In this document: positions 876 to 46,021 of the stretch, piece by piece
How positions within the stretch are numbered: position 1 is the first letter of the stretch
Layout of the letters: the number at the start of each line of letters is the position of its first letter
Virus record (IMG/VR): IMGVR_UViG_3300034073_004654
Coordinates: 12,893 to 76,892 of that record
Length of the DNA: 64,000 bases
Source of the DNA: a virus
Strand: one strand, 5' to 3'
Notes under the pieces: model-generated
The model's database searches: none
Seen by the model: only the letters and a program-made list of their open reading frames with translations
What the model was told of the DNA's origin: nothing
Translations under genes and position numbers: made by a program

Positions 876-1406
876 ATGAGTTTTTTTAATGATCTTTCGG
901 TTATTCGTCCTGATTCTACCTTTTTGACTCTGAAAGGTTATCGTTCGCAGTTTGACGAGGTGGCAGATTATAACATTGTATTTCATGTTAGTTATGAAAA
1001 TGCTTTGAAGAAGTCGGTTGCTATTCTCGAGAATTATGTTCCCGGTGATCTTTTGGAAGAAAAGGCTAAGAACGAGCTAATTGCAGGTTACAAGGCTTCT
1101 TTGTATAAGATTGCCAATGATTCCGAGAGTGAATCGGAGCATTATGCAAAGGTTTTGGATGAGGCTGGCAAGGCAATTAAGGGAGTAAAGGTTCACCGAG
1201 AGACGGGTATTGCTTATATTTTCGGTTTGCTTCATCGAAAGCATGTGATTAAGGCTGGAGAGTATAAGAACAGCAATAAGCAGGCTTTTACTTTGGTTAA
1301 GGATAGTCTGAGGAAGCTAACTCCTGTCAATAAGTGGCGACAATTTATTGTTAAGCCTGGGCAGGTTGAGGCGATTAAGGTTGAGAATTTGACTTTGCTT
1401 CCTTGA
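876..1406 (+). CDS. hypothetical phage protein
   Basis: GGAGG RBS before ATG 876; no ATA/AGA/TTA codons. Confidence 0.8.
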   Translation: MSFFNDLSVIRPDSTFLTLKGYRSQFDEVADYNIVFHVSYENALKKSVAILENYVPGDLLEEKAKNELIAGYKASLYKIANDSESESEHYAKVLDEAGKAIKGVKVHRETGIAYIFGLLHRKHVIKAGEYKNSNKQAFTLVKDSLRKLTPVNKWRQFIVKPGQVEAIKVENLTLLP

Positions 1407-2087
1407 TTCAGGTTTCTGAGAGTTATTACTTTAGCTATAAGGGAATTGATAACATGAAGATCGGACAGCGAGTAATGATTAACAATGTTGATGGTCCCCA
1501 TACTTTTGGGGTATATGCTGGAACCGCTGTAATGCAGCGGTTTGAGAATTCCGATATGGAAACTATGGCAATTGTCCGATTGGATATGGGAGATTGTGGA
1601 TATATTTTGCCGGATGGTCGAGGAAAGAAGCCTGTAAATTTTGTGAGTTGTGTGGTTGTTCATCCTAGTAATTTGACGGTTGCTTGAGGGAGGTTATTAT
1701 GGGATATTATATGAGCCAGGTAGATGCGGATTTCTTTATTTCCAAAAAGAATTTCCCTGATGTAATTAGGGCAATTCACCAGATGGATTCTGATGGTTCT
1801 TGGGTTCGTTCTGATTTCCGAGAAACCAAGGATCTTGAGGAGATTTTTAATTGTTGGCGATGGGAAATCTTTTTCGACGAAGATGGGGATGTGACGGATA
1901 TTTCTTTCCGTGGTGAGAAGTTGGGGGATGATGAACTTTTGTTTAAGGCAATTGCGCCATATGTGAAGAAGGGTTCATTTATTCAGATGAATGGGGAGGG
2001 TACGGATCAATGGCGTTGGGTCTTTAATGGGGTTAGTTGTTACGAGCAACATCCTAGGGTAATTTGGGATTGAAAGGAAAAAAAACA

Positions 2088-2384
2088 ATGACAAAGATTA
2101 CTGTTGTAGTTAAAGAGCCTGGTAAGACTCCTGAAGTTAAAGAGATTGATGATACTTTGGAGTCTATGCAGGAAGTAGTTGGTGGATATATTGAACTGGT
2201 AGCTATGCCCAATAATCTTGATTTTTATGTTAATGAGGAGGGGTTAGCCGAGGGATTGCCGTTTAATACCCATATTCGAGGAGTTCCGGTAGTGGGTACG
2301 GTTTTTGCAGCTTCGAGGAATTCTAGTGGAGATACCATTGGATTGACTAAATCTCAGATTGACAAGGTAATGACCTTAATTTAA
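2088..2384 (+). CDS. DUF3846-like protein
   Basis: Motifs L..MQEVVGGYIE, VNEEG...LPFN, VGT. Confidence 0.7.
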   Translation: MTKITVVVKEPGKTPEVKEIDDTLESMQEVVGGYIELVAMPNNLDFYVNEEGLAEGLPFNTHIRGVPVVGTVFAASRNSSGDTIGLTKSQIDKVMTLI

Positions 2385-2395
2385 AATAAGACTTT

Positions 2396-2472
2396 CCGAC
2401 CTTAGCTCAATTGGTTAGAGCATCCGACTCATAATCGGCAGGTTTTCGGTTCAAGTCCGAAAGGTCGGACCA
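2396..2472 (+). tRNA. tRNA with CAU anticodon (Ile2 or elongator Met)
   Basis: Cloverleaf: CCGACCT/AGGTCGG acceptor, GCTC/GAGC D-stem, CTCATAA loop, TTCAAGT T-loop, encoded ACCA. Confidence 0.92.
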
Positions 2473-3148
2473 TTTACATATAACTATACGGAGTTTATTA
2501 TGAGCCAATTTTATATCCGAGCGGTTAATGAGTTCGATGACAATGGTGCGGCATTGTTTTGGAACAATGAATTTGGTTGGGTAAATCAATCCGAGGCGGA
2601 TATTTTTTCTTCCGAGGAAATGATTGAGTTTGATTTGCCGATGGGCGGAGTTTGGCAAAAGTTTTTTAATTGAGGGAGGTTAAATCATGAATATTATTAA
2701 TCACGAGAGTATTGTTGATGTTAAACCCATTCAGATTGTTTCGGGGTGTCGTCCTCACCGAAAGGTTTTGAGGCATATTCCTGAGAATAAGATCACTCCT
2801 TATGTGATTCATATTGAAAATCTCGAGGTTGAAGGAGATAATCTTGTTCATTTGGATTTTCATGCAGGTCATTACTTTAGGGATCTAGAGTCTGCCAAGC
2901 TAGCTTTTGGTAATTGAAATAATAAGGAAAATCCTCATGGAAGCTATTATTAAAGAAGCGGGCAACGGATTTCCTACAATTGGTGATGTTCTGGAGAATG
3001 ACGAAGGATGTTTTAAGGTAACATCTTATATTGGACCAATCCATACCAGCGGTTTTGGGAAGCCCAATTATATTTATGCGACTGTAGAGCCGACTCAAGA
3101 TTCTGATGATATTTTCCAGGCTCATTTAATTGTCCAGAATTAAAGTAG

Positions 3149-3177
3149 TTGACTTGGAAAAGAACTTGTGTTAGAAT
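3149..3177 (+). promoter_or_regulatory. sigma70-like promoter
   Basis: TTGACT-17-TAGAAT. Confidence 0.7.
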
Positions 3178-3453
3178 AGTTGTGCAGAGTGAGGGAGACT
3201 AAAATGAACAAATACGGTATGATTATTGAGGAAAAGCGGGTCCATTTCGTGATTGTGGAAGCCGAGGATGAAGATCGGGCAATTGAAATTGCAGCGGAAA
3301 TGGGCGTTGATGATTATGACCAAACGGATATTGGCGGAGATTGGGATGTGACTACTTGCCAAAAGTTTAAGATTAGTGAATCTGACAAGGTAATTGCTAA
3401 GAAGGTACTTGGCTGAGTTAAGTAGACTTGCTAAACAAAGATGTTTTGAGGTG

Positions 3454-3482
3454 TTGACGGGGTAAAGATCATGCGTTATGGT
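3454..3482 (+). promoter_or_regulatory. sigma70-like promoter upstream of tRNA-Leu
   Basis: TTGACG-17-TATGGT. Confidence 0.6.
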
Positions 3483-3540
3483 GTAGCTATGAGTGCAAGG
3501 GGACCGCCTAATCATTGATAGTTGTGGGATTGTGAGATAT

Positions 3541-3622
3541 GCCACGGTGGAGAAATCGGAAAACTCAGGAGACTCAAAATTTCCCGCTTAACAGCTTGTC
3601 GGTTCGATCCCGACCCGTGGTA
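3541..3622 (+). tRNA. tRNA-Leu(CAA)
   Basis: GCCACGG/CCGTGGT acceptor, CTCAAAA anticodon loop, long variable arm, GTCGG-TTCGATC-CCGAC T-arm, A73. Confidence 0.88.
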
Positions 3623-5463
3623 CAAAGATATTTTAATTAGTGAGGACAAAGCAAATGGCAAAAATTCAGTTCTGCGATGGTTGTCATAAGGAACGTAAGA
3701 ACGTAATTTCTTGTGGTCGCGATTCTAATGGCGATCCCGACGCTCCTGATTTGTGTTTTATTTGTCGCAAGGAAGCTGAGAAGTTTCGTTGTTGGTCGCA
3801 TAAGGCAGGAAAGTATATTCCTAACACTTGGGTCTATACTTTTAATGAAGTAACTGATTCGGTTGTTTACTGATTACCTGAGAGGATAGAAAATGGGCGC
3901 TGAACTTATTTCTGCGGTTCTTGAGATTGATCACAATGTCCAGCCTGATTGGGATAAGGCTGAGAATTTCATCCGTAATATGGATGATTTGACGATGGTT
4001 AATCTGTATTTCAAGATTATTGACCTAGGTAATGAATATATCCAGGAAGATTTGCCTGAAATTGTCAAGGATATTGAACATGCTCGTCAAGGATTTTTGG
4101 ATGCTTTGAATGATTGTTTGGCAGGTTGGCAAAACAGTCATAGGTTTATGAATAAGATTCGGCTTAAGAATAGCACGATTTTGCTGGCGGCTGGTGAAAC
4201 TTGGGGAGATAGTGTTCATCAATGCGACAGTATTATGTTGTTTGATGGTTGCGGGGCAGCAAAAGAAGCCGGATTTTACTGAAACAAGATTTTAGGAGCA
4301 ATATGAGCAAAGTTCTTTTATCTACCAGCGGTTATGGCGGCTATTATGCCAGTCTTTTAAGTGATGAAGAAGCTCCAGGTTATGAAAATGATGGTTGCTG
4401 CGTGGTAGAAATTCCTGAATCTAAAGCCGCCGAATGGAAAGAGCTTTGTTACAAAATGGATGAATTTCAAAGGCTTTGGAAAAAGCTTAGTAATGAATGG
4501 TATGATGAGTTTGGGTTTGATCCTAAGAAGGGTTAAATAAGTCTAATGCAGCTTTATTGTATAGGATATACAGAAGATGATTCTCCTACGGGCAAAGTTC
4601 TTTCTTGGAAAAAGAAGGCTAACGGAGAAGATGATGTTTATGAAGATTATGGGTTAGCTTTAGAGGCTATTGAGAATGATGGTTGGTGGGGTTATGTTTT
4701 AGAATATCCTCAAGGAATCCATCCTGGGTGGAAAGATAAGATTAAAGGTTAATTATGGAATTTCAAACTCGTTCTGAAGTCAACGGCATGGGGTATTACG
4801 ATTCTTTGGGTGCGGCTATGAAAGCTGCTGCAAAGGATTCGACTATCTGGAAGATTTCCTTTACGGTTGGAAAGGAAAGCGTTAGATTGGTTAAGCGAGA
4901 TGGTCAATGGATTTACGAGCCATTGTTTCCGATGGATCGAGTTAATTTGGAATTCATGGATTGAGGGGTAAATATGGAATTTTCTCAAGAAGATTTGGTT
5001 ATTATTCGCAAAGCTCTTTGTGCATATCAGGAGCATTTGACACCATCTGCATCGTATGTTAAAGAAATTGCAGATTGGTCTGGTAAGGTTGCCAATGTTC
5101 AGCACAAGCTAAACAAGATTTTGCTCAACAGCGAAAGTTTGATTAATCGAGATAGTCGTTAAATTAGGAAAAACGATTATGGAAAAATACATTGACAGGG
5201 TTGATATCCAAGATATTGCCGAGGAGCATCATCTTGGAAATGTTTATTTCGAGTGGCGAACGGCGGTCAATACAGGAAAGCAATTTGAGGCTGGATATGT
5301 AATGCGAGACAATAGGAAAGTCTTGTTTTGCAAGAGTAGTATTTTTGCTCCAAAGGGTCATTTCTATCTTTGCAATGAGTTTCGGGAAATCAACGGAACT
5401 GACTAGAATTTCTGTCTAGTGAAAAAATCTGTTTATTTACAAATAATTTTAAATTTTCAAATT

Positions 5464-5495
5464 AAAAAACCAGGAATTATTTTCCTGGTTTTTTT
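5464..5495. terminator. bidirectional intrinsic terminator
   Basis: AAAAAACCAGGAA-ttatt-TTCCTGGTTTTTTT between convergent genes. Confidence 0.8.
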
Positions 5496-5498
5496 ATT

Positions 5499-6164
5499 TC
5501 ATAAATATGTTAGATTTACTAAGCCCGAAAGCTCTTTAAATTGCTTCAAGTCATATTCATCTTCTATATCAGATAGCTTTTGAATAATATTTTCAATTGC
5601 CTGGTTTCTTTCTTGCCATTTTTCAGGGAATTTTGGTAGTTTTTTCTTTAAGAGAATATTATATAATTTTTTTAATTCCTTTTCTGCTTCAAATAAACGC
5701 TCATCTTTGGAGCCTTTTTTTAACAATCCTGTTATTGCTTCATATAAAGACTGTATGCGATTTCTAATTATGCTTTCTTGGGGGTGTAATTTCGGGCTCG
5801 AGCTTTCAAATTTTATATGATTATATAATGTTGTAAATTTTGGAGATTTTAAATATGATTCTCTTATTTTTATAAGCCTTTGAAAAGCATTTTCAATTTT
5901 TTCAGAGTTGCGTGGATCTGTTTGTAAATCGTACACTATTTCTTCTAGTTCTTTTTTTGCTAAGGCTAATTGTTGCTGTTCGGCAGCAGAATATTTAACA
6001 GCTTCGGTAGGACTTAATGCTTGTTTTAATCCGCCGTATAAACTTCTCATGCCTTTCATAATGGATAAATTATCAGGTTTTTGAATATTATTTTGAGACA
6101 ATTTATCAAAACCATATTTAATATTATAATAATTTGCTACTTTGATAATTGAATTTAATGACAT
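5499..6164 (-). CDS. leader-family putative virion protein
   Basis: N-terminus MSLNSIIKVANYYNIKY resembles 20929 and 22126; AATA-N6-TATT at 6192-6205. Confidence 0.75.
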   Translation of the reverse strand: MSLNSIIKVANYYNIKYGFDKLSQNNIQKPDNLSIMKGMRSLYGGLKQALSPTEAVKYSAAEQQQLALAKKELEEIVYDLQTDPRNSEKIENAFQRLIKIRESYLKSPKFTTLYNHIKFESSSPKLHPQESIIRNRIQSLYEAITGLLKKGSKDERLFEAEKELKKLYNILLKKKLPKFPEKWQERNQAIENIIQKLSDIEDEYDLKQFKELSGLVNLTYL

Positions 6165-6328
6165 GTCGATTACCCTTTAAACTCTTACATTAATATTTAA
6201 TTATTAGTAAAAAGTTAGCAGAAGCTTTAGAAGATCAACGAAACTAAATGGTTTTCCAGTCATCCAAAAAAGCCGACCCAGCTATTCCGAAAATTTGCCA
6301 CCCTAATAAACTATCTGCAATTAAAGCG

Positions 6329-6357
6329 TTGACTTGGAAAACATCCCGACTTATACT
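6329..6357 (+). promoter_or_regulatory. sigma70-like promoter
   Basis: TTGACT-17-TATACT. Confidence 0.75.
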
Positions 6358-6805
6358 GTAGATCGAGAGGTAGTACCATGCCGAAAATTGATCCTATTTC
6401 TGGTTGTTCTGTTATGACTATGACTGAGTTTTGGGCTGCTGAAGCTCAAAAGGAAGGAAAAGATGTAGCAGAAGTTATGGAAGATTTCCATAATGATATT
6501 GCTGCCGATGAGGAAAAGACTCGACAAGGAATGTTGAAAGATTTTTCGGGAGCTTTGGAGAAGCTTAAGGAATATTATGATCCTGAATATGATGATTCAG
6601 GATTGGTTCCGGTAGAAGTTCTGGAAATTACCGACGCTGATTGTTCTTATGGTTATAGCAAATCAAAGAGCAGCTTTGTCGCAAAGGTTCGATTTGAAGA
6701 TCAAGTGCGAAATGTTCAGTATTCCGAGGTTTCGCACAATGGCAGCTTTTACGAGCCGCCCGATTTTGAGGCTAATTGCGTAATTCTTTGAGAGGAGAAA
6801 ATATT

Positions 6806-7087
6806 ATGAATAAAACAATTCTTTTGGTTACGATCTTTTGTAGCGGTTGTGCAAAGGAAACAGTTGTCCAATCGCCAGATAAAGTAGTTGTTATTCAAGC
6901 TCCGTGCGGGTCAAATCCTGATAATTTTGATCAAGCGGGAAATATTCTTGTCAATGGGGCTCGTTGGACATATAATCAAGCAAAGAATACTTACGAATGG
7001 GTGTTTTCTGAGGAAAATCAGAAAAAAGCTATGGATTTGCTAACTGACGCTAAGAAGAAGGCTGAAAATTTCGTTCAATCGGAATAA
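6806..7087 (+). CDS. putative lipoprotein
   Basis: MNKTILLVTIFCSG-C signal peptide/lipobox; GAGGAG RBS. Confidence 0.55.
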   Translation: MNKTILLVTIFCSGCAKETVVQSPDKVVVIQAPCGSNPDNFDQAGNILVNGARWTYNQAKNTYEWVFSEENQKKAMDLLTDAKKKAENFVQSE

Positions 7088-8037
7088 AGGAGAAATATCA
7101 TGAGCGCAGATAATGCCATTGTTATTGGTAAGTTCCTAGTTAATGGAAAGGTAGCATTTTCCGTAGTAGAAACAAGTGCCATCGACAATGTTGATTATTA
7201 TCGAAATCGAGGCAATTCTCGAGAATTGCAAGAGTACGTTCATGATATTTGGAAGCGTGGAAAATTTTTCCTTGATGAAAAGGAAGCTTTGACTTATGCT
7301 CATACCACAAATAATGAGTGTGGAACCGAATACGGAGTAATCAGCATTGATTTCTCCGATATTTCTCCTATGCCAAGCTTGGTGAGTTTCGTGGATGCTG
7401 CAAAGTTTGCCGAAAACTATGAGTCAAAAGATATGAGAAAGACTCAGCCGGAAATCAAACTGGATAAAGAGTGGGTGGCTGAAACTCTAGGCATTTTCAA
7501 AGGTTTACTAGCAGCATGTCCAATGACCGAATCAAAAGAATTTGAGCTTTGGATGATGCACCAAATTCACAAAATGTGGCAAGACAAAAAAATTTCAGGA
7601 AATCAAGTAGCTTTGCTGTTGGATGAAGTTTGCTGTTACTGAGGTAATATGGAAAATCTAACTGTAGCAGAATTGTTGGCAAAGCGAGCTAAAGAAAAAG
7701 AACAAGGTGATTGGTATCCTGCTAGTGGAGGAACAGAAACTCCATTTCTTACTAGATCGAGACGCCGATTGCTGTATGTTTGGCAACCGTCTACTGGTAA
7801 ACATGCTTATTTGGACTGCGACACTGATCTAATTCTTTCAGATGAAGAAGCTGAAATAGCCTTGTCCATGTATTAAAAAAATCTTATTATGTGGTCTTGA
7901 CAAGATATTATCCGTGTTTATGTTAGCGGGAAGGGCAACACAGACCAAGAAAGAAATAATTATGTTGAGTTTAATTGAATTCCTGGTTGTTTCCAGTCTT
8001 TTGTCGGTTTCCTTTTTCTTTCAAGGATCGAATTAAA

Positions 8038-8292
8038 ATGGCTAAGAAGTGCAATTGTCATAAGAATCGAGAAGCTGCCGTTGCTAAAGGCATGGATTGG
8101 CACGAGGCTCATCGCAAATATTCTAAGTCTGGATATCATGAGCATCGTTGCGAGTGCAATTGTGGTTGTAAAAACGATACTCTTGGTTATAAGCATTGCG
8201 TAAGCTGTAGCTTTGACAAAAACTGTTGTAAACTCCGAGATCAAATTGGCATGAATATTCTTGGCTTGCCAGTTTTTGCCAGCGACAATTGA
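8038..8292 (+). CDS. Cys/His-rich small metal-binding protein
   Basis: 10 Cys in 84 aa (CNC, CECNCGC, CVSC, CC). Confidence 0.55.
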   Translation: MAKKCNCHKNREAAVAKGMDWHEAHRKYSKSGYHEHRCECNCGCKNDTLGYKHCVSCSFDKNCCKLRDQIGMNILGLPVFASDN

Positions 8293-8304
8293 TTTAGAGG
8301 GAAT

Positions 8305-8616
8305 ATGTTTGAAGTAGTTTACAATGATTGTTATGGCGGGTTTAGCCTAAGCAATAAAGCTCTGAATTGGCTTAAGGAAAATGGGATGGATTTGGGAGAT
8401 AATTGTTATCCTCTTGATAGCGAACTGCCCCGCCATCATCCTCTTTTGGTGAAATGTGTAAAAGAGCTTGGTCAGGAAGCTGGAAATCAATATTCTAATC
8501 TTGTTATTGCTGAAGTTTCCAGCAAATCTGGAAAATATTTGATTCGAGAATATGATGGATTGGAGTGGGTGGAAACTCCAGATTCTATTAATTGGGTAGA
8601 TGCAGCTGTTCTTTGA
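8305..8616 (+). CDS. conserved hypothetical phage protein
   Basis: VVYN.CYGGF.LS...RH.P.LV..V.ELG...EYDGLE.V pattern familiar from myophages. Confidence 0.7.
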   Translation: MFEVVYNDCYGGFSLSNKALNWLKENGMDLGDNCYPLDSELPRHHPLLVKCVKELGQEAGNQYSNLVIAEVSSKSGKYLIREYDGLEWVETPDSINWVDAAVL

Positions 8617-9703
8617 AAGGAAATATTATGTTTAATCTTGATACTTGTAAGAATCTTGGGAATCAATTTCAAGCGGAAGTTACTCCTTGCTACCAAGAAG
8701 ATAAGGTAAAAGGAGTTCATCTAAAACTTCGTAATTCTTGGACAGTTTCAATTCAGTGGGGATATGGAACTTATACTAACAATCGAAATTCTATGGAACA
8801 TGATTCTTGCGAAGATGCGGAAATTGCCGCTTGGGATCATAATGATGAATGGTATGATTTTGGTTATGACCAAGTAAAGGGCGGCTGTAATTTTGAGACA
8901 GTCAAAAACTTTATTAAGGAAATTGCCAGCAAACCAAGTCATCTAAACTAAGAAATATTGTTCCAATGCATTCTTTTACGATCTACTGGAGTTATAATTT
9001 TCCTTTTTGCCACGCTATTCCGCAAATTGGAACTACTATTGTCCGAGCAGAATCCAAAGAGAAGGCATTGGAACAATTCAAAGATATTGGTTATCCCACT
9101 ATTAGCCTTAATGGTAAAGGCTATTATAGAGTAGAGAAAATTGAATCAGGCAGTTTGATTAATTACAAGATATGATTTATTTTGTAATCTTGACTTTGAT
9201 TTTTTGTTTAATTTTTTCCATTGCATTAAGTTAATAATTTAACTTAATTAAGAGAGGTTAACGTGAAAATTAAACGTAGAAAAAAGAAAGAGCCAAGAAA
9301 CATTGTTGTAATGGATATGATTCTTAATCCAAAGGATTGCAAAATTACAAATCGAAATTCCAAAAGATTAAACAATCCAAGAAAAAAATTTTGGGATTTT
9401 GAAGATTGATAAGATCTTTTTTTGTGCCTTGACAAGAAATAAATCGTGATTAACTTGCTTGTAGTGGATGGCTTTCCACTATATACAAGGACATTATGAA
9501 TAAAATAATTGTTAATTTCGACAATGTTCGTCCTGGCGATGTTTTTGAAATTTGCGAAGATGGTAACTGGACGGCAATTAGTACGATTAAAAAGTCTGAC
9601 CCTGATAGTTTTGCAGAACTTTTAACAGCCTTGCAAAAGGGATTTGTTGATTTTGGAAGAATGGTTCCTTGTCGAGCTGTCCGATTTCTTAATTGATTAA
9701 ATT

Positions 9704-10150
9704 ATGCTCACTATTCAAGAGAAAAAGCAAGCCGTTCAATTAAAAAAGATTGCCCTGGATAAGCTTTCTTCTCATGGAATTCAAGACAAGTTTACTGTTA
9801 AAATTAAACCTGTTCAAAAGAACTGGGTAGCTCAATATCGGGGCAAGAGTCAGTTTTCTTCTGGCGGATCAATTTTTTGGCTTTCTTCTGAGTTGCTAAA
9901 TAATCCAGATGAGTTTGTCATTTCTGTTTTACATGAGTATGGTCATGTCATTGCAGAATTTGCTTGGATGCAAAGCCCTGATTTAAGTCAACTTATCCAA
10001 GATAATTGGAAAGGTGAATTTCATGGTCGTCCTTGGAACGAAGAAAATTTTGCAGAAGAGTTCGCTCAATATTTGGCAGGTAGATTCTGTTCTTCCAAAG
10101 AAATTCTGAATCAAGTAATTGTTCAATTTATTAAGGATGCATTAACGTGA
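9704..10150 (+). CDS. zincin-like metallopeptidase domain protein
   Basis: VLHEYGH plus downstream EENFAEEF. Confidence 0.65.
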   Translation: MLTIQEKKQAVQLKKIALDKLSSHGIQDKFTVKIKPVQKNWVAQYRGKSQFSSGGSIFWLSSELLNNPDEFVISVLHEYGHVIAEFAWMQSPDLSQLIQDNWKGEFHGRPWNEENFAEEFAQYLAGRFCSSKEILNQVIVQFIKDALT

Positions 10151-10527
10151 AAAATATTTTAATCAATGTTTCTGTAGCAGCAGTTACAGTTTTTCCATTT
10201 GTTTTTGGAATTGCTATGATTATTTTTTAGGAGGTTATTATGTTTTTGGCAAAGCTATATGACAAGGGAAGTGGAACTCCAATTTGTTTGGATTTTGAAA
10301 ACAAACCGCATTCTCATATTTTTCTAAATGGAAAACTTTATTCGCTGATTAATAATGAGCTTGTTTCTGAACATGGTTACAAACAAACTTATTATTATGG
10401 TCAATCGTATTTCGAGAGCGTTACTAGGTGATCTTGTTTACTTTCTTGCATTGCAGTGTTGACACTTAATTTTGAGTGGTTAAGTTCATTGTGTGGCTGA
10501 GAGTCACGCCTAACGGAGAGGTAATTT

Positions 10528-11250
10528 ATGAGCAAGAATAATTTTTCCGCCGCATACGTCAGCAATTCCAAGAACGTCAAGCTTTCCAAGACTGGAAAGG
10601 GTGTAGATGCTACTTATTCCAGCATTAAGGCTACCTGTCCTAAAGATTGTAAGCTTAAGAATGAGGGGTGCTATGCCCAAATCGGAAATACTTTCTTTAC
10701 CGTAAAGCGTTTGGATCAAAACGCTGGTAAGAAGTCTGGAATTGCGGTTGCCAATGAGGAAGCATTGGCAATTGATAATGCTTGGAAGGGCGGAAAGGTG
10801 CCTAATGGGCAGCTTTTGCGGCTTCATGTTTCGGGGGATTGCACTACGGATAATTCCGCAAAGATCGTTAGTAGTGCGGCAGAACGCTGGCTTAATCGTG
10901 GCGGAAAGAATGTTTGGTCTTATACCCATGCTTGGCGTAGGGTTAAGCGAAATTCTTGGGGTAAGGTCAATGTCCTGGCAAGTATGGAAAATCCCAAGGA
11001 CGGAAAGCTGGCAATTAAGCGCGGCTATGCACCGGCTTTGGTAGTGGGCTCTTTCAAGAACGATAAGGCATTTGTGAAGGAGGGAATTCGTTGGATTCCT
11101 TGTCCGGCGCAAACCAAGGAAAATGTAACTTGCGCTGATTGCAAGTTGTGTCATAATGTCGATAAGCTGGTAGAGCGTAATGCCGGAATTGCTTTTGAGA
11201 CTCACGGAGCCCAAAAGAATAAGGCAAAGCGTCATTTGACGGTTCTTTGA
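10528..11250 (+). CDS. Gp88-like Cys-cluster phage protein
   Basis: TCP..C.L...GCYA, LRLHVSGD, WSYTH, CPAQ....TC..CKLC. Confidence 0.65.
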   Translation: MSKNNFSAAYVSNSKNVKLSKTGKGVDATYSSIKATCPKDCKLKNEGCYAQIGNTFFTVKRLDQNAGKKSGIAVANEEALAIDNAWKGGKVPNGQLLRLHVSGDCTTDNSAKIVSSAAERWLNRGGKNVWSYTHAWRRVKRNSWGKVNVLASMENPKDGKLAIKRGYAPALVVGSFKNDKAFVKEGIRWIPCPAQTKENVTCADCKLCHNVDKLVERNAGIAFETHGAQKNKAKRHLTVL

Positions 11251-19497: not shown

Positions 19498-19514
19498 TAA
19501 TTGAACATAAAGTT

Positions 19515-39393: not shown

Positions 39394-40329
39394 ATGAATA
39401 AATACGAAAAAATACTTTTATCATGTGCTGCCTTTGATGAAATGATAAAACGAGCCGTCAGACGGACTTTATCTACACCCGTTTCTCCTAGACCTTCATT
39501 TAGGGCTCCAAGGTCCAGCCCTCCAAGCATTCCGGTATTAGATCCTCCAACAATTAGAACGCCATCAAGTCGAGCACCTACAACCACTTTAGATGGAGGT
39601 CCTCCAACAGTTGTGGATAGTCGCCCACCTATGTCCTCTCCTGTTTCATCTCAATCAGCCGCAACAGTTGTGGATAGTCGTCCCCCTATTTCATCTTCTA
39701 TGTCATCTCCTTCTCTTGTTCCGCCTGCTAGTAAAGTTCCACCAGCGGCAGCCACTGCTTTGAAAACTAGATTGAGAAGTCTTTTAACTAGCGGCTTAAC
39801 TGGTGGCAAAGACTTATTCTCAAAGAATCCCAAAAAAGCCGCAGCAGCAGTTTTATTAGGTGGCGTTGCACTTATTTATTATGCTTTAAAAGGAAAATCT
39901 CCCTCAACTGACAATGAAGAAATGAAAGAAGTTATTGATATTGCGATAAAAAACAATCTATCAGAACTTCCAAAGCCTGCCGAATTATTTAACAAATTAA
40001 ATGATATTAATTCTTTTTTCCAAGAAAAAGCTGCTAAAAATACAAAAATTGCAGAGAAGTTTGGGGTATACATAGAGAAGACAAGTGATATAATTAATGA
40101 TTTAAATTCATTATCTAATATTCAATTAGATGTTAATAATACGCAATCTGTTGTTAATTTCATTAAAGAATCTAAAAGAATGGAACCTAAGTTGGGTGAA
40201 TATCTTGCCATTTCAAAATTAACTCAAGATAAGATTGTAATGCCAGAGTTAAACCAAGAAATTGGTGAAGTTAATTCCATGTTAGAACAATATCAAGTTC
40301 TTTTTAGCCAAGTCAAAAATATAAGTTAA
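39394..40329 (+). CDS. leader-family protein with Pro/Ser region and TM helix
   Basis: ...AAFDEMIKRA; AAAAVLLGGVALIYYAL; AATA-N6-TATA at 39362-39375. Confidence 0.75.
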   Translation: MNKYEKILLSCAAFDEMIKRAVRRTLSTPVSPRPSFRAPRSSPPSIPVLDPPTIRTPSSRAPTTTLDGGPPTVVDSRPPMSSPVSSQSAATVVDSRPPISSSMSSPSLVPPASKVPPAAATALKTRLRSLLTSGLTGGKDLFSKNPKKAAAAVLLGGVALIYYALKGKSPSTDNEEMKEVIDIAIKNNLSELPKPAELFNKLNDINSFFQEKAAKNTKIAEKFGVYIEKTSDIINDLNSLSNIQLDVNNTQSVVNFIKESKRMEPKLGEYLAISKLTQDKIVMPELNQEIGEVNSMLEQYQVLFSQVKNIS

Positions 40330-40335
40330 GAAGTT

Positions 40336-41481
40336 ATGAAAAAAATAAAAAACATATTAGATCAGTCGATTGAATTTGAATCTATAGTTAAAAAAGCTTT
40401 TTGGAAGTCATTTAAAAGTCTTGTGACTGGGACTCGACCTATGAGAGTTCCCCCTGGAGGAACTAGACCAATACCTAGAAGGGTTCCACAAGGCTTTAAT
40501 GTTATGGAAGCAACGCCTACCGGACCAGTGTTAAAAAGAGGAATAAAAGAAATCAGTCCAGGAGTTTATGAATTAGAACCGGGATTTAAAATAAATCAAA
40601 CTGCTGGAACAATAGAACCAATTAAGCCAAGTTTGCCACCTGGATATTCTCCTGAATCTGGAGGAATGTTAGCTAAATTGACTGATGCTGAATTATTAAG
40701 TTTATATGATACAGACTTAAAGCAACTACAATTTAAAATTTCAGATTTAGACAAATTGCCCGATGCCTGGAAAAAGCCCGATGGTAGTGATATAAATCTA
40801 ACCCCGGAACAAATCGCAACAGTGCAATCAGAAGTTCGAATTCAAAATCAAAAAATCAGAGATAAAATAAAAGAATTAAAAAAAATAGATCGCAGCACGG
40901 TTCGAGGTGAAGCTTGGTCTGAATTAAAAGGTTCTAAGGGATTTAAATTTACCGCTGGTACGAGTGCTTTAATTGGTCTTGTTACAATTTATAAATTATT
41001 TTCCAATGACGATCCAAAAACGGATAGCGATGAAAAGAAAAACGTCATCAATAAAAGTCCTTTATCAAGTTATTTGGCAGGAGCACCAAACTCATTAGAA
41101 GTGATTAAGAATTTAAATTCGCTATTAGCAATTTTAAATTCTGTCATGAATCAATCAGGTGAGCTTCGCTCACAAGATCTTGCTACGCTAAATAATTTTA
41201 TTAGAGAAACTAGAACGGCTAAAAGATCCATGGAAAATTTTGCTAAATTAAAATTAGATTTAGATGATATGAATTCAGTTCAGCAATATATAATAAATTT
41301 AAATTCTTTAGAAGAAGCATTAATGAAATTTAATGTTACATTGATGGATATATCTGATATTGCTGCCAAATCAAGAAATATGAAACTATTAAGCATTGTC
41401 AACCAATTAGATGAAGCTTTTTCTGAATATTCCAATATAATCACAAAGGCAAAAAGCTTATCAGCTTCTGACAATATTTAA
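40336..41481 (+). CDS. leader-family protein with TM-like helix, paralogue of 39394
   Basis: ...IEFESIVKKA; AGTSALIGLVTIYKLF; LDLDDMNSVQQYI vs LDVNNTQSVVNFI. Confidence 0.75.
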   Translation: MKKIKNILDQSIEFESIVKKAFWKSFKSLVTGTRPMRVPPGGTRPIPRRVPQGFNVMEATPTGPVLKRGIKEISPGVYELEPGFKINQTAGTIEPIKPSLPPGYSPESGGMLAKLTDAELLSLYDTDLKQLQFKISDLDKLPDAWKKPDGSDINLTPEQIATVQSEVRIQNQKIRDKIKELKKIDRSTVRGEAWSELKGSKGFKFTAGTSALIGLVTIYKLFSNDDPKTDSDEKKNVINKSPLSSYLAGAPNSLEVIKNLNSLLAILNSVMNQSGELRSQDLATLNNFIRETRTAKRSMENFAKLKLDLDDMNSVQQYIINLNSLEEALMKFNVTLMDISDIAAKSRNMKLLSIVNQLDEAFSEYSNIITKAKSLSASDNI

Positions 41482-41493
41482 TAAGAAAAAATT

Positions 41494-42267
41494 ATGAACA
41501 ATAAAATTTTAAACTTAGTCGGTTCTATTGATAAATTTCAAACCTTAATTAGAAAAAATGCCGTTGCTCCTGCCGCTGCTGGTGCCGCCGCGAGCACCAC
41601 TCAAATAGCAATATTAATAGCTCTAATTCCAATTGTTAGTCGCGGGATAGACAAATTTTTTAACACTACTAAACTCCCAGATGATGCTAAAAGAATTCAA
41701 GAAAATTTATTAGATTATAAAGAAGATTATCAAGATGAAGATTGGTTTAAGCCATTTGCTAATGAATATAATAGTTTTTTAGATAAATTAAATATTTTAA
41801 TTAAAGGAAATGAAGAAATAATTAACTTATTAGCCCTTCCTAAGGGCGAAGAAACTAACGAAAAAATTGCTATAGAAATACAAAAATTTCTAACTGCCCT
41901 GGGAGAAGCTGAAAGATTAGCCCCTGGAGTAAATGCATTTCTGGAAGAAAACAAAAATTCTGCCACCAAAGCCCTTGATTTTGTCGGAGAAACCTTTGGC
42001 GCTCTTGGAATAAAAACAGATTCCATGGCTGCACAAGCTGGAATAATGTCATTTTATCAACATTCTCAATACGAGAGACTCAAGTTAGAACAAATATTAA
42101 TTGACGCTACTAAAGAAAAAAAATCTACTCCTTCACAGGGCAGAAAATTCGATCTCAATCAGCCATTAATTGAAGAAGAAAAACAGAAGGGATCGGAAAG
42201 AAATCCTCCAGCTCAAATTTCTTCCGTTGAAGATTTTGCAAACATATTTAATGTTGAAGCCGAATGA
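41494..42267 (+). CDS. leader-family protein with hydrophobic helix
   Basis: ...IDKFQTLIRKNA; IAILIALIPIV. Confidence 0.75.
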   Translation: MNNKILNLVGSIDKFQTLIRKNAVAPAAAGAAASTTQIAILIALIPIVSRGIDKFFNTTKLPDDAKRIQENLLDYKEDYQDEDWFKPFANEYNSFLDKLNILIKGNEEIINLLALPKGEETNEKIAIEIQKFLTALGEAERLAPGVNAFLEENKNSATKALDFVGETFGALGIKTDSMAAQAGIMSFYQHSQYERLKLEQILIDATKEKKSTPSQGRKFDLNQPLIEEEKQKGSERNPPAQISSVEDFANIFNVEAE

Positions 42268-42296
42268 ATAAGACCACTTTACATCTTGGAATATAA

Positions 42297-43784
42297 ATGA
42301 GAAACTATTCAAAAATTCTTAAACAAGCAAAAAATTTTGAAAAAAAAGTACATGAAGTCAATCCTTCAGTTGTCGTAACAGAACATGAAGGCGTAGACCC
42401 TGTTTCTTATATGGCTTTTAATAATTTAAAAACCGTTATCAATGATGCCACCGAATTATTATCTATTTTAAATAATGAAGATGATCTTCCTCAATGGGTA
42501 GATGAAATGTTAGCTATGTCTAAAGGCAATGTGTCTAAAGCTTTAGATTATGTCCGATCTGAAAAAACTGAAACAGAATCTTTGCTAGAAGATGAAGACC
42601 ATGATCATGAATTAATAGCAGAGGGTCAATATCGAGGCTTCTTATCTTCTGTTAAAGACGTTTTTAATAGACCTAAAACAGATCTCGAAATTAAATTGGT
42701 ACAAATTGACGAAGAACTTAGAGATGCTTTCTTATCTTATGGTCCATCAGAATTATCATTGACTAAAAATTTAAATTTGGCTCAAAAATCAATTAATGAA
42801 AATAACTTCTTAAAAGCAAGAAAGCATTTAACGGATTTTAATAATGCCTTGCAATTCATGTCAAATAGAGCAACTGATTTTATTAATTATTCTAAGCTCC
42901 CAGGTAAACAAGCTGGGTTTTTCGATTTTTTTAAAAGTAAAAAAGAACAACCTGTTCGCACAGAGATTTCTCAATTATTGTTTGAACAATTTAATAAATT
43001 AATTCTTGCTGGGGAAAGTACCTTAATAGCGGTTAAATCTATTTTTGAAATGCTGGATAAATATCGTTCAGATAAAAATATTAATGCTTATATAAGCATG
43101 TTAGAATCATTGAAAAATGAACAAAGAATTTTTAGTGAAAAATTCGACACTCTTAAAAAAGAATATTTTATGTATTTAGGCGAAACTGGCAGTGAAATGA
43201 TTGGTAGTACTTTAAAAGAAATGAAAAAAGACCTGTATCAGCCTAAAGAAGATAAATATGTTGGAGTTGGCGGATTGGAAACATCTCAAGCTCCAATTAA
43301 AGCATTAAAATTTGAAGTTCCGCCACCAGAAGCTAAAAAAGATCAATTTACAGGATATGATGTTTCCGCTCCAGAATCTGAGTTATCTCCTTGGGCAAAA
43401 CAAATGTTGCCAGTTTCTCCCAAATTTGATCGTGTAGATGAAACGGGAGAATGCCCATGCGGTAGTAGATTGCCATGGCTTGCATGTCATGGATTTGACG
43501 AGAATAAATTTGAAAAAATGAGGGATGAAATAACGGACAAAATGGCAAAAGACATAATGATTAAAAAGAATATTTCTTACAAAGAAGCAAAAGAAGAAGT
43601 AAAAGAAGAAGCAGAAAGACAAGCAGAAATTAGATATTATAACTGGGTTAATCTTTATCTTGCTCGTAAAGCCAGGATAGAAGCAGAAAAAGAAGCTAAA
43701 AAAGAAGAGAATCGTCAAAAGAGAATTAAAGATTATTTAAAATTTGAATCTAATGTTGAACATATATTTCCACAAAGAGCATAA
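42297..43784 (+). CDS. leader-family-like protein with SEC-C motif
   Basis: MRNYSKILKQAKNFEKKV; CPCGS......CHG. Confidence 0.7.
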   Translation: MRNYSKILKQAKNFEKKVHEVNPSVVVTEHEGVDPVSYMAFNNLKTVINDATELLSILNNEDDLPQWVDEMLAMSKGNVSKALDYVRSEKTETESLLEDEDHDHELIAEGQYRGFLSSVKDVFNRPKTDLEIKLVQIDEELRDAFLSYGPSELSLTKNLNLAQKSINENNFLKARKHLTDFNNALQFMSNRATDFINYSKLPGKQAGFFDFFKSKKEQPVRTEISQLLFEQFNKLILAGESTLIAVKSIFEMLDKYRSDKNINAYISMLESLKNEQRIFSEKFDTLKKEYFMYLGETGSEMIGSTLKEMKKDLYQPKEDKYVGVGGLETSQAPIKALKFEVPPPEAKKDQFTGYDVSAPESELSPWAKQMLPVSPKFDRVDETGECPCGSRLPWLACHGFDENKFEKMRDEITDKMAKDIMIKKNISYKEAKEEVKEEAERQAEIRYYNWVNLYLARKARIEAEKEAKKEENRQKRIKDYLKFESNVEHIFPQRA

Positions 43785-43845
43785 TCCACTGGTTATTTAA
43801 TCCAGCCTATTCTACAAAAATTTCTATAAGCTAAAAACAATTGAC

Positions 43846-43874
43846 TTGACTCGGACCTTGGTTGGTGCTACACT
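43846..43874 (+). promoter_or_regulatory. sigma70-like promoter of tilS
   Basis: TTGACT-17-TACACT with TGn. Confidence 0.7.
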
Positions 43875-43895
43875 CTTCATATTGAGGAGTGTAAC

Positions 43896-44495
43896 ATGAT
43901 TCGTTTTCTTGATAAGCTTCCCCGAGAATGTGTTGTTGCTTGTTCTGGTGGTGCTGATTCTATGGCAGCATTGTCTTTTCTTACCAATCATACTAAACGC
44001 AATGTTACCGTTGCTTATTTTGATCATGGTACAGAATTTGGCACTCAAGCTAAAACCTTCGTTCAAGATTTTTGCTCGTTCAATGGTTTGTCATTAACCA
44101 TTGGCTCTATTAATTCCGAAAAGCCTAAGGATGAATCTTGGGAAGAATATTGGCGGAATCAACGCTATCGCTTCCTGCATAGCTTTGACTTGCCTGTTAT
44201 TACCGCCCATAACCTTAATGACCAAATGGAAACCTGGCTGTTCACAGGCTTTCATGGAAATTCTCGACTAATCCCATATCAAAACAAGAACGTTATTCGA
44301 CCATTCATGTTGACTCTTAAGTCTGAATTGATCGAGTGGTGCAAATTCAAAAATGTTCCCTGGCTGGAAGATCCGTCAAATCAGAACACCAACTTCATGC
44401 GAAATAAAATTCGACATGATATTTTGCCGGAAGTTCTAAAAGTTAATCCGGGATTCGATAAAGTCATTCTTAAGAAAGTTATGGAATTGATTTAA
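43896..44495 (+). CDS. tilS: tRNA(Ile2) lysidine synthetase, catalytic domain only
   Basis: SGGADS PP-loop, DHG, R..RY.F, TAH.L.DQ.ET, IRP, EDPSN....RN.IR. Confidence 0.88.
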   Translation: MIRFLDKLPRECVVACSGGADSMAALSFLTNHTKRNVTVAYFDHGTEFGTQAKTFVQDFCSFNGLSLTIGSINSEKPKDESWEEYWRNQRYRFLHSFDLPVITAHNLNDQMETWLFTGFHGNSRLIPYQNKNVIRPFMLTLKSELIEWCKFKNVPWLEDPSNQNTNFMRNKIRHDILPEVLKVNPGFDKVILKKVMELI

Positions 44496-45499
44496 TGCCA
44501 AATTTTTTAACTATATTAGGTTTTGCAGCCACTTCTTTTATTTCTATTTGGGCATTCCTTAAATATCTTGTTCTTGGTCAATATCGCCTAGACAATGATA
44601 CTAGTAAGCGCTTGATTTCTACCATTATTAAATCAAACGCTAAACAGTGGATCTTAAATAAAGATCTTGTTATTCCTCCCAAATTTCCAGAGCAATACGA
44701 AGCTTTTGTTATCTTAAATGGTTTGTATTTTTTCTTTTCCAAAACAGAGAGATTAATGACCGCAGGATGGCAATCTAAAGAAAATATTTCTTTTATTTCT
44801 TTTCCTAGATGGCAAAGAACAAGAATCGATGCCCTTTTAAGAGGCGAGGGTTTTAGCGATAACACAATTCCAGTTATGGCATTATTGCCTTCATCTACGG
44901 ATCGTTTAGGAGAATTAGTTTGCGATCCTAATCCACCTTTATATTTAGATCCTTCCTTATATCAAGACATTGAAGATGATGTAATTCAGGTTTTAGGAGG
45001 CAAGAAGAATAAAACGGGCTGTTTGTTATATGGTCCTCCTGGTAATGGCAAAACTCAATTTGCTAAATATCTTGCCAGGAAATATCAGCTACCAATCTAT
45101 GCTATCTATTTAAATCCCGAATATAACAATTTGGATTTAGCAATGATGTTTGCTTCTATCCCTCAAAGATGCATTATTTTGATGGAAGACTTTGATAATT
45201 ATTTTAACAAAAGAAATTGCATTATCAAAAATGAAAATGTCAGATTTACTTTTGATGCCATCATTAATGCTTTAGATGGAATTCATAATGATTACAAACA
45301 AGTTGTTTTCATTATGACTGCGAATAATATTTCGCATATTGATTCGGCAATTAAAGATAGAAGGTCTAGATTTCAATTCGTTAAAAGATTTGGACCACCA
45401 TCTGATAAGATTAGGTTAAAGATTCTTGGAGACCCAAGTTTGGTTAAAGAAACCAAGGGATTATCCTTAGATCAAGTTTTTGCTAGGAAAACCAAGTAA
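44495..45499 (+). CDS. membrane-anchored BCS1-like AAA+ ATPase
   Basis: N-terminal TM; LLYGPPGNGKT, ILMED, NALDG, IMTAN. Confidence 0.75.
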   Translation: MPNFLTILGFAATSFISIWAFLKYLVLGQYRLDNDTSKRLISTIIKSNAKQWILNKDLVIPPKFPEQYEAFVILNGLYFFFSKTERLMTAGWQSKENISFISFPRWQRTRIDALLRGEGFSDNTIPVMALLPSSTDRLGELVCDPNPPLYLDPSLYQDIEDDVIQVLGGKKNKTGCLLYGPPGNGKTQFAKYLARKYQLPIYAIYLNPEYNNLDLAMMFASIPQRCIILMEDFDNYFNKRNCIIKNENVRFTFDAIINALDGIHNDYKQVVFIMTANNISHIDSAIKDRRSRFQFVKRFGPPSDKIRLKILGDPSLVKETKGLSLDQVFARKTK

Positions 45500-45873
45500 A
45501 TCAATGTAATAAGCGGGCATATAATTCGTTAGAACTTGTTTTAACGCACAACGGAGATTTAATGAATTATATTGAACATGAGAGCGGCTATCGTTTAGCG
45601 ATGGCAATGATGCGTAAGAAGGTAGATTATTATCTTGATAATTTAGAAAATTCTGGAATGTCGGAGCAATCTAAAAAAGAAATGCGAAAAATCCTTCAAG
45701 ATATTTTTGAAACTACGGAATTTGATTATGAAGAGGCGGTAGCCGATGATTGAACAAAAGCCCTCGAGAAATAGAGGGCTTTTTAATTTGAACTATTAAG
45801 TAATTCTTACAAGTTGATTGCCTTGACATTATGATTTCCTTGTCGAGCCAAGATTCCTTCAAGAAATAGAGGC

Positions 45874-45901
45874 TTGACAGCGAAACAAAGTGAGTTATAG
45901 T
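45874..45901 (+). promoter_or_regulatory. sigma70-like promoter of tRNA-CAU
   Basis: TTGACA-16-TATAGT. Confidence 0.75.
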
Positions 45902-45944
45902 ATGAAGGTGAGACGAACAAGACTGTAAAATAGTGAATAATTTC

Positions 45945-46021
45945 CCGACCTTAGCTCAATATTTGGTTAGAGCAGTGCGCTCATAACGCAACGGTTCACG
46001 GTTCAAGTCCGTGAGGTCGGA
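45945..46021 (+). tRNA. second tRNA with CAU anticodon (Ile2 or Met)
   Basis: CCGACCT/AGGTCGG acceptor, TGCG-CTCATAA-CGCA, CACGG-TTCAAGT-CCGTG; no encoded CCA; followed by a terminator hairpin. Confidence 0.9.

Follow-up and report, generated by a model that had tools for sequence, protein, structure and literature searches.

Considered here is a 64,000-nucleotide stretch of viral DNA, below simply ‘the window’, which consists of bases 12893-76892 of the 76,892-bp IMG/VR virus record IMGVR_UViG_3300034073_004654 (35.3% GC), a sequence found in subsurface metagenome DNA. At issue is an uneven use among its genes of three codons, ATA, AGA and TTA, together with the tRNA genes and the short relative of the enzyme TilS (‘mini-TilS’, gene tilS) which the same sequence carries. 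Positions are those of the window unless described as genome positions, which are those of the whole record, or contig, on which a self-trained open reading frame (ORF) caller found 160 genes. The terms ‘early’ and ‘late’ are used as labels that follow from promoter class, i.e., sigma70-like promoters versus an AATA-N5-ATAT upstream motif, and not from measured times of expression. The features upon which the argument turns are as follows.

111-11687, plus strand: block of 32 small genes, organised in sigma70-driven units and having strong Shine-Dalgarno sites, including 876-1406 and 10528-11250 (DUF7227)
828-866, plus strand: sigma70-like promoter, position weight matrix (PWM) score 34.5, preceding early gene 876-1406
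5499-6164, minus strand: late-type island within the early block, leader MSLNSIIKVANYY, AATA-N5-ATAT upstream
29722-30738, plus strand: early-type DUF932 gene, promoter at 29644
39394-43784, plus strand: late-type cluster of four leader-bearing proteins, no Shine-Dalgarno, preceded by AATA-N5-ATAT (39362) and by a terminator (39315)
43896-44495, plus strand: mini-TilS of 199 aa, limited to the catalytic PP-loop N-domain (TIGR02432, PF01171), promoter at 43846
44495-45499, plus strand: AAA+ ATPase, start overlapping the tilS stop
52192-56664, plus strand: DUF444/SpoVR/PrkA operon (Pfam)

Codon avoidance

A first-pass annotation, made from the sequence alone, had stated that genes 876-1406, 10528-11250 and 29722-30738 are devoid of ATA, AGA and TTA, and upon recount every one of its counts is correct. 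That is, ATA makes up 0 of 11 isoleucine, AGA 0 of 6 arginine and TTA 0 of 18 leucine codons of 876-1406, with the equivalent numbers being 0/9, 0/11 and 0/15 for 10528-11250 and 0/13, 0/24 and 0/24 for 29722-30738, the latter also having AAA at 0/23. For this last gene, 0/61 for the three codons together has a chance of 3.6e-10 given the genome mean of 0.30. The tilS gene is likewise as had been described, lacking ATA (0/11) as well as AGA and AGG (0/10 combined), and possessing one TTA (1/19).

These genes are not isolated cases. Over the block at 111-11687 as a whole ATA is found at 5/187, AGA at 11/106, TTA at 19/209 and AAA at 91/244, and over the continuous run of 50 plus-strand genes to which genome positions 2381-24579 correspond the three codons are found at 9/302, 21/183 and 36/363. 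Breaking up that run are four islands, each with its own upstream motif, in which instead ATA is at 30/85, AGA at 27/54 and TTA at 74/139. The island at 5499-6164 is one late-type example (ATA 8/19, AGA 4/8, TTA 19/29), and the cluster at 39394-43784, for which no Pfam or PHROG match was obtained, is another (ATA 38/100, AGA 32/55, TTA 82/140). Minus-strand genes are of the codon-rich type in 17 of 17 cases. Also borne out is the earlier claim that leader-family genes use ATA, TTA and AGA early in their reading frames, as the first such codons of the late-type genes are found within codons 2-57. The codon avoidance, then, is real and far beyond chance.

Promoter class versus base composition

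Sigma70-like promoters were scored using a PWM derived from obvious TTGACA-N16/17-TATnnT sites, with resulting scores of 14-36. There are 28 of them on the contig, all on the plus strand, and those within the window, other than the one at 828-866, lie at the following positions.

550, 3149, 3454, 6329, 7897, 9429, 16911, 17131, 24199, 29644, 32862, plus strand: sigma70-like sites (PWM)
36953, 38433, 38917, 43846, 45874, 46404, 49537, 56726, 57319, 62795, 63177, plus strand: sigma70-like sites (PWM)

Included are the promoters which had previously been placed ahead of tilS (43846), of a tRNA-CAU gene at 45945-46021 (45874) and of a candidate tRNA-Arg(UCU) gene (17131), all of which are recovered. 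The strongest of the set, at 3454, precedes a tRNA-Leu(CAA) gene. A further tRNA-CAU gene, at 2396-2472, does lie within an early cassette as had been proposed, there with a weak sigma70-like site at 2359.

Promoter position supplies a means of classifying genes that is independent of their codons, that is, the first gene behind a sigma70-like promoter versus all others. By this classification, over the whole 76.9-kb contig, the three codons represent 37 of 592 (6.2%) of the isoleucine, arginine and leucine codons of promoter-first genes versus 1281 of 3820 (33.5%) of those of other genes (Fisher 1e-51; gene-level Mann-Whitney 4e-8). Such a split of codon use by promoter class, controlled for GC content at third codon positions (GC3), is what the first-pass annotation had called for as a check, and the association holds, with GC being insufficient to explain it: In a logistic model that includes GC3 as well as four-fold-site GC the promoter-class term is -0.99 (bootstrap 95% confidence interval -1.48 to -0.59).

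Several observations indicate what distinguishes the classes. Among two-fold pyrimidine-ending codons the C-ending share is 0.22 for promoter-first genes versus 0.19 for others, and the shares of GAT, CAT, AAT and TAT are identical; this unchanged choice between C and T implies a mutational background that is common to both classes. Where the classes do differ is in A versus G at split boxes, the G-ending share of lysine, glutamate and glutamine codons being 0.49 versus 0.25. In-frame ATA, TTA and AGA are 10-fold, 6-fold and 5.5-fold rarer, respectively, in the low-use class, with out-of-frame counts equal, and relative to expectations from that class's own four-fold sites ATA is seen 5 rather than 49 times and TTA 22 rather than 68 times. 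Base composition does not explain the synonymous-codon classes, and GC content is not the explanation of the avoidance. The evidence instead supports the existence of at least two codon regimes, linked to promoter class.

It is against these numbers that one may set a compositional explanation, i.e., that low-use genes are recent imports from some GC-richer genome, making their codon content a legacy of mosaic origin rather than a product of selection. The three genes named above are in fact the GC-richest on the contig (0.40-0.49), DUF932 and DUF7227 are families that are widespread among mobile elements, and in the Pseudomonas jumbo phage PA5oct, considered further below, low-use genes are shifted towards C-ending codons. 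Imports of that kind are hard to reconcile with the unchanged C/T choice, seen also gene by gene (7/40 C-ending for 876-1406 and 12/55 for 10528-11250), or with a depletion that is frame-specific. The depletion furthermore is common to approximately 50 small genes in many promoter units, some with a GC3 of only 0.26-0.32, and is kept in a 48%-identity orthologue in relatives. A mosaic origin therefore is largely refuted, and we give it very little credence indeed.

Translation starts, a second upstream motif and a common leader

The two classes of genes differ in more than codons. A Shine-Dalgarno motif is present in 97% of low-use versus 46% of high-use genes, with mean duplex energies of -7.5 versus -3.6 kcal/mol (Mann-Whitney 1.5e-7), and since start-codon choice favoured Shine-Dalgarno motifs this contrast is a conservative one. 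The classes, that is, also differ in their mode of translation start.

Upstream of rich-type genes the sequence AATA-N5-ATAT is enriched, with 25 sites versus 9.1 +/- 3.3 in shuffles, and it sits 20-35 nt ahead of nine such genes, for which ATA is at 65/179, AGA at 47/80 and TTA at 131/216. We view it as possibly marking a second class of promoters, one specific to the phage. It is sometimes palindromic between divergent genes.

6193, 15045, 20892, 28466, 32804, 36914, 38177, 39362: AATA-N5-ATAT sites in the window, upstream of rich-type genes

Many otherwise unrelated rich-type proteins have in common an N-terminal helix (MSLKSILKVANYY..., MSKI.K.L.AC.IF...), here called the leader.

5499-6164 (minus strand), 18475-20363 and 39394-43784: leader-bearing proteins in the window
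Genome positions 152-565 (minus strand), 5361-6635 and 8725-9282: further leader-bearing proteins

The leader set includes an enzyme of CCA-adding/poly(A) polymerase type, and for none of the leader proteins was a family match found. That leader proteins might be parts of the virion was considered and could not be established: The AlphaFold model of 42297-43784 (495 aa) is all-helical and too poor for a structure search (predicted local distance difference test score 62.6; predicted template-modelling score 0.34), and the ESM Atlas gave no usable match for 40336-41481.

tRNA genes

2396-2472, plus strand: tRNA-CAU copy 1, Ile2-like (ARAGORN; Rfam 67.5 bits), CCA encoded
3541-3623, plus strand: tRNA-Leu(CAA) (ARAGORN; Rfam 45.7 bits when searched alone), promoter at 3454
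17205-17275, plus strand: candidate tRNA-Arg(UCU) (ARAGORN only), atypical reduced D-arm, promoter at 17131
17408-17687, plus strand: tRNA-Asn(GUU), whose anticodon loop contains a group I intron (approximately 207 nt; Rfam RF00028)
45945-46021, plus strand: tRNA-CAU copy 2 (Rfam 57.4 bits), no CCA encoded, strong promoter at 45874

A tRNA with a CAU anticodon can serve either methionine or, once lysidine-modified, isoleucine at ATA, and the two encoded here appear not to be methionine tRNAs. The two are paralogous, with identical acceptor and D arms and with anticodon and T stems that differ by compensatory changes, and both are elongator-type (loop CUCAUAA, C1-G72 paired, A73, no GGG/CCC anticodon stem). 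When 5,426 E. coli genomes are searched, both are matched best by tRNAs with a CAU anticodon which RefSeq types as tRNA-Ile (76-81% identity), and copy 1 has in common with such E. coli tRNAs every base of its 13-nt anticodon arm, CGACTCATAATCG. Given this typing, which is by RefSeq best match rather than by explicit comparison with elongator tRNA-Met sequences, the two resemble lysidine-type tRNA-Ile2 and not tRNA-Met. As a side observation, the Rfam family for the plastid ycf2 5' untranslated region gives a full-length match to 2396-2470 on the minus strand, at 44.9 bits and short of its gathering score. The probable reason is an overlap of that family with plastid trnI-CAU, in which case this would be a further hint of likeness to tRNA-Ile2.

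The Arg(UCU) candidate opens a unit consisting of promoter, tRNA, tRNA and terminator (the last at 17694), within which it is co-transcribed with tRNA-Asn(GUU). For the latter the intron match is 62 bits versus a gathering score of 50, and the exons fold, by eye, as a tRNA-Asn(GUU) cloverleaf. Both this intron and tRNA-Leu(CAA) were missed, through filters, by large Rfam searches and were found by small ones. Immediately before this unit is a 62-codon ORF (16946-17134) which has a sigma70-like promoter of its own, in which AGA supplies 4 of 4 arginine codons with neither ATA nor TTA present, and which stops right where the Arg(UCU) candidate has its promoter. The ORF could be a sensor-type leader ORF or instead a coincidence.

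A search for tRNA-Leu(UAA), the decoder of TTA, had also been suggested, and it was successful in part. The gene exists, just upstream of the window, though in this genome its D-arm is interrupted by a 1,248-bp TnpB element. Excising that element in silico restores an 85-nt tRNA-Leu(UAA) with CCA, and the uninterrupted junction has no exact match in IMG/VR.

Genome positions 11013-12260, 557-1888 bases before the window: TnpB element, encoding on the minus strand a 382-aa OrfB_IS605/Cas12f-like TNB protein
Genome positions 717-1934: second TnpB, 405 aa

The predicted tRNA set of the phage, taken together, supports a match to all three avoided codons, with Leu(UAA) interrupted and Arg(UCU) atypical.

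A one-domain TilS

The product of tilS scores 126 bits against TIGR02432 (cut-off 93.6) and 114.6 bits against PF01171, and its SGGADS as well as other motifs align to PDB 1WY5, with the N-domain intact. It aligns, however, solely to residues 25-228 of the 317 of A. aeolicus TilS and 13-206 of the 433 of the E. coli enzyme, and against the full-length TilS model NF007942 it reaches 56 versus a cut-off of 606. Judged by these alignments it is a genuine catalytic-domain homologue, and is a one-domain TilS relative rather than a canonical TilS. What type II TilS (Aquifex aeolicus, 1WY5/2E21/2E89) and type I TilS (E. coli, 1NI5; Geobacillus, 3A2K) have in common is a PP-loop ATP-pyrophosphatase N-domain, and the motifs SGGxDS, HxLNDxxET, EDxSN and RNxIR are found in the bacterial enzymes and in mini-TilS alike. 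The bacterial proteins differ in possessing C-terminal tRNA-binding domains, whereas mini-TilS stops at the end of the catalytic domain. Mini-TilS would form lysidine at C34 of tRNA-Ile2, for which there is indirect support in the nearness of its gene to CAU tRNAs and in the specific avoidance of ATA by tilS, both described below. A TilS without those additional domains might, as one possibility, be relaxed in its choice of tRNA and so act as well on host CAU tRNAs.

TilS in other phage lineages

One-domain TilS is common, being found as at least 322 protein clusters and on at least 423 IMG/VR contigs, many of which are 100-500 kb. This allows a test for which the present contig is not required: If ATA decoding is limiting until TilS acts, then tilS should avoid ATA, and only ATA. 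For 70 mini-TilS loci, representing 37 clusters at 70% identity, tilS was compared with its own flanks. ATA accounts for 10% of isoleucine codons in tilS versus 30% in flanks and is lower in 36 of the 37 clusters (Wilcoxon 5e-10). Fifteen clusters have no ATA in tilS at all, versus 1.0 expected, and in 29 of 36 cases tilS falls within the lowest quartile of the locus for ATA. Over these same 37 lineages tilS and flanks do not differ in AGA (33 versus 34%) or TTA (22 versus 22%). A CAU tRNA is found within 10 kb of tilS in 53 of the 70 loci. This lineage-wide and ATA-specific depletion is new evidence, mention of which was not found in the literature searched, and it suggests a rule for what is a widespread and little-studied family of one-domain TilS proteins.

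Closer to the present phage, the contrast between genes poor in ATA and TTA and rich genes next to them is retained in three divergent relatives. The DUF7227 orthologue (48% identity) has ATA at 0/12 and TTA at 0/13, with a neighbouring gene at 29/58 and 40/67, and one of these relatives possesses a block with ATA at 1/82.

The nearest cultured point of comparison is provided by the Pseudomonas jumbo phages PA5oct and MIJ3 (Wroclawvirus), to whose 203-aa TilS the mini-TilS is 56% identical; no other protein in common was found by blastp. These are phages of 33% GC with a host of 66% GC, they encode tRNAs CAU (three), Leu(UAA) (two), Arg(UCU) and Asn(GUU) (PMC7318152), PA5oct uses the host RNA polymerase, TTGAC/TATAAT promoters and small early genes (PMC7318152, PMC6892783), and their TilS was annotated rather than studied (PMC6892783). 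In the early region of PA5oct that is delimited by RNA-seq (PMC7318152), the three codons are by our count at 28% versus 53% elsewhere, with nine genes near zero, a split not described in the accessible parts of those papers (PMC7318152, PMC6892783). PA5oct and MIJ3 resemble the present phage in having a mini-TilS and CAU, Leu(UAA), Arg(UCU) and Asn(GUU) tRNAs, and PA5oct does so also in an early region that is low in the three codons. PA5oct differs in that its own tilS is not free of these codons (ATA 2/15).

A middle tier

Among genes that use AGA and TTA the use of ATA is heterogeneous (chi-square p = 2e-7). As a matter of description, 13 genes form a middle tier in which AGA (51/147) and TTA (119/285) are employed while ATA is scarce (15/268). 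To this tier belong the AAA+ ATPase behind tilS (ATA 1/31, AGA 11/18, TTA 20/36), the DUF444/SpoVR/PrkA operon (8/114, 19/86 and 39/114) and also genes that follow the second CAU tRNA. Of the three codons it is ATA alone whose decoding needs a newly made protein besides a tRNA, making a longer lag for ATA a natural reading.

A proposed time-ordered codon adaptation

We regard as fairly probable that the above reflects a time-ordered codon adaptation which is enabled by a phage-encoded decoding ‘kit’ of tRNAs and mini-TilS. At the start of infection only host tRNAs would be present, with decoders of ATA (lysidine-modified tRNA-Ile2), AGA and TTA limiting and those of AAA and other A-ending split-box codons limiting to a lesser degree. 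Selection would have purged these codons from the genes which the host RNA polymerase transcribes from sigma70-type promoters and on which translation begins at strong Shine-Dalgarno sites. The same promoters would drive the two Ile2-type CAU tRNAs, Leu(CAA), the Arg(UCU)-like tRNA, Asn(GUU) and the one-domain TilS, with the latter acting on the phage CAU tRNA so as to turn its C34 into lysidine. As this kit accumulates, remaining genes, i.e., those with the other upstream motif, with weak or no Shine-Dalgarno sites and with the common N-terminal leader, would become translatable despite sitting at an AT-rich mutational equilibrium. The need of ATA for a protein step in addition to a tRNA would give rise to the middle tier, which uses AGA and TTA yet avoids ATA. 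We infer, rather than observe, the timing, the scarcity of host tRNAs, the formation of lysidine by mini-TilS and the dependence of late translation on the kit.

Is this a switch, as the first-pass annotation proposed? In a stronger version of the idea, late mRNAs would be untranslatable for as long as phage tRNAs and TilS stay below some threshold, which is to say an active codon gate or timer serving as a checkpoint atop transcription, and comparable to the bldA/TTA system of Streptomyces or to the recoding of stop codons by crAss-like phages. Consistent with a gate are the near-absolute exclusion of the codons from promoter-proximal early genes, a kit that is itself early-driven and essentially free of the three codons, the avoidance of ATA by tilS across phage lineages, and the presence directly behind tilS, in the same operon, of a gene that is rich in AGA and TTA and effectively ATA-free. 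A gate, though, should be visible also on the late side, and there the codons are used merely at neutral levels: Relative to four-fold-site expectations, rich-type genes have ATA at 0.33 versus 0.38, TTA/TTR at 0.77 versus 0.79 and AAA/AAR at 0.80 versus 0.79, with AGA/AGR at 0.79. Nor are late genes enriched at their 5' ends, the first 30 codons versus the rest showing ATA at 0.24/0.27, AGA at 0.53/0.55 and TTA at 0.57/0.53. Neutral frequencies without 5' enrichment fit a relaxation of selection once the kit accumulates, rather than codons having been set as a lock, and the concentration beyond neutral use which bldA-like control would entail is not seen. Late-type genes, in addition, have their own upstream motif, so that a transcriptional switch suffices, the Leu(UAA) gene is disrupted in this genome, and lateness is itself read from promoter class. 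What stands of the proposed translational switch is that codon classes are tied to promoter class and that a kit exists; the late genes do not bear out the switch proper, and we think a gate unlikely.

A different possibility is that tRNAs are lost rather than scarce, with a host anticodon nuclease or decay removing Lys-UUU, Arg-UCU, Leu-UAA and Ile2, with early genes shunning the corresponding codons and with the phage supplying resistant replacements. The avoided codons ATA, AGA, TTA, AAA and partly GAA/CAA are indeed split-box NNA codons which are read by wobble-modified tRNAs, phage tRNAs here have unusual arms, and a study of Sf14 favours the view that phage tRNAs stand in for host tRNAs which have been degraded (PMC12482277). 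Replacement would nonetheless call for tRNA-Lys, tRNA-Glu and tRNA-Gln, none of which is on the contig; known anticodon nucleases act after phage expression starts and therefore hit late rather than early translation; and the ATA-specific avoidance by tilS would go unexplained. We consider such loss quite improbable as the cause.

Time-ordered adaptation, too, has a number of points that weigh against it. The early/late timing is taken from promoter motifs, host tRNA scarcity is deduced from the phage side, and the codons by which the tiers are compared are also those by which they were drawn up, making the tiers a description and not a test. The sigma70-driven genes 16946, 46077 and 46510 do contain AGA/TTA. 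AAA is avoided nearly as strongly as the three codons, at 21/134 in the strictest early genes, and the contig has no tRNA-Lys, an absence on which it bears that the contig may be incomplete. With Leu(UAA) split by TnpB the supply for TTA is missing here unless the insertion is recent, the Arg(UCU) candidate goes unmatched by the tRNA family of Rfam at a cut-off as loose as E<=10, and mini-TilS is without the C-terminal tRNA-binding and discrimination domains of all TilS enzymes studied.

The host

The first-pass annotation had early genes tuned to the tRNA pool of a high-GC host, and for this tuning there is no support. Early genes display no shift towards C-ending codons (0.23 versus 0.18), whereas low-use genes of PA5oct do (0.59 versus 0.25), as expected given a 66% GC host. 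Favoured by the early genes here are T-ending codons and the G-ending codons of split boxes (ATT, TTG, CTT, CGT, AAG).

The trio DUF444/SpoVR/PrkA is associated with stress and sporulation in bacteria. The nearest relative of the phage's PrkA, at 81% identity, comes from a Bdellovibrionota metagenome-assembled genome (MAG), in which the gene order is the same. This likeness was considered as evidence of the host and rejected as such, since the MAG locus uses ATA for 29% of isoleucine, unlike the early-gene pattern. That MAG has 84 tRNA matches, and on two of its contigs tRNAs are packed in runs of 10-14 over a few kb. Such tRNA-dense contigs may be phage contigs which have been binned with the MAG.

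Comparison with known systems

Temporal codon-usage classes were reportedly described for phage T4 by Cowe and Sharp in 1991 and by Kunisawa in 1992. T4 is likewise an AT-rich phage with tRNAs for ATA (a CAU tRNA that is converted to the lysidine form), AGA and TTA, and its later-expressed genes make more use of phage-decoded codons, with timing having been measured in T4 and being inferred here. The present system is of the same kind, i.e., tRNA-linked temporal codon classes, and is a sharp variant. T4 uses host TilS, whereas this phage brings its own, and T4's classes are graded, whereas here promoter-proximal genes are almost codon-free (ATA 5/187) and there is an ATA-only middle tier. Distinctive, then, are the near-absolute early exclusion, the phage-borne one-domain TilS and that middle tier. 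General surveys of phage tRNAs and codon use are available (PMC5683454, PMC12482277).

With bldA of Streptomyces the likeness is that a rare codon is absent from first-needed genes and that a dedicated tRNA serves a later programme (PMC2000904). There, however, the codon is found in a few regulators and dependence has been shown genetically, whereas here codons are at neutral frequency across late-type genes and the case is built from sequence. Stop-codon recoding by crAss-like and other gut phages is similar in that phage tRNAs alter decoding while early genes stay host-compatible (PMC9523058, PMC10879173, PMC11210395). It differs in that TAG or TGA becomes an amino acid, whereas in the present case codons keep their standard meaning and it is capacity which would be added.

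Implications

As a tentative and on balance doubtful generalization, mini-TilS plus a phage tRNA-Ile2 could be a sense-codon checkpoint of large phages generally, with the extension to AGA and TTA in the present phage making for a three-step cascade. Were this so, ATA would be effectively unreadable at the needed rate prior to infection, the bulk of the proteome would be translatable only after TilS, and the enzyme's gene would be kept ATA-free for that reason. Short of a checkpoint, the contig would show with unusual clarity, in a natural setting, a codon choice that is ordered by the availability of decoding machinery. This bears on the prediction of hosts from phage codon use, on why phages carry tRNA-modifying enzymes, and on the minimal portion of TilS that is needed for tRNA recognition.

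Other features of the contig

Few of the contig's proteins match any known family (Pfam, NCBIfam). Those recognised are the TilS N-domain, the AAA+ ATPase, the DUF444/SpoVR/PrkA operon, DUF932, DUF7227, DUF2786/DUF7168, the CCA-adding/poly(A) polymerase-type enzyme and the two TnpB genes. The ten largest proteins gave zero PHROG matches, with no terminase, portal or capsid recognised by that search, so that the contig may be a portion of a larger genome. Neither megablast nor tblastn of the 39394-45499 region or protein found a match among GenBank phages, the 495-aa protein has no IMG/VR relative, and among the sequencing runs listed as containing the phage sequence there is no RNA run.

Two additional proteins may be mentioned. 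The first, at 33005-33361, is of 118 aa and consists mostly of Ser/Thr/Arg repeats (MTTSTRSRSTRST...), with zero isoleucine and zero leucine and with a sigma70-like promoter upstream. The second, at 15941-16852 on the minus strand, is a leader-type protein of 303 aa with a weak match, 24.7 bits and below cut-off, to DUF5591, which we take to be a domain found in relatives of the archaeosine-type tRNA-guanine transglycosylases. The protein may represent a further nucleic-acid-modifying enzyme.

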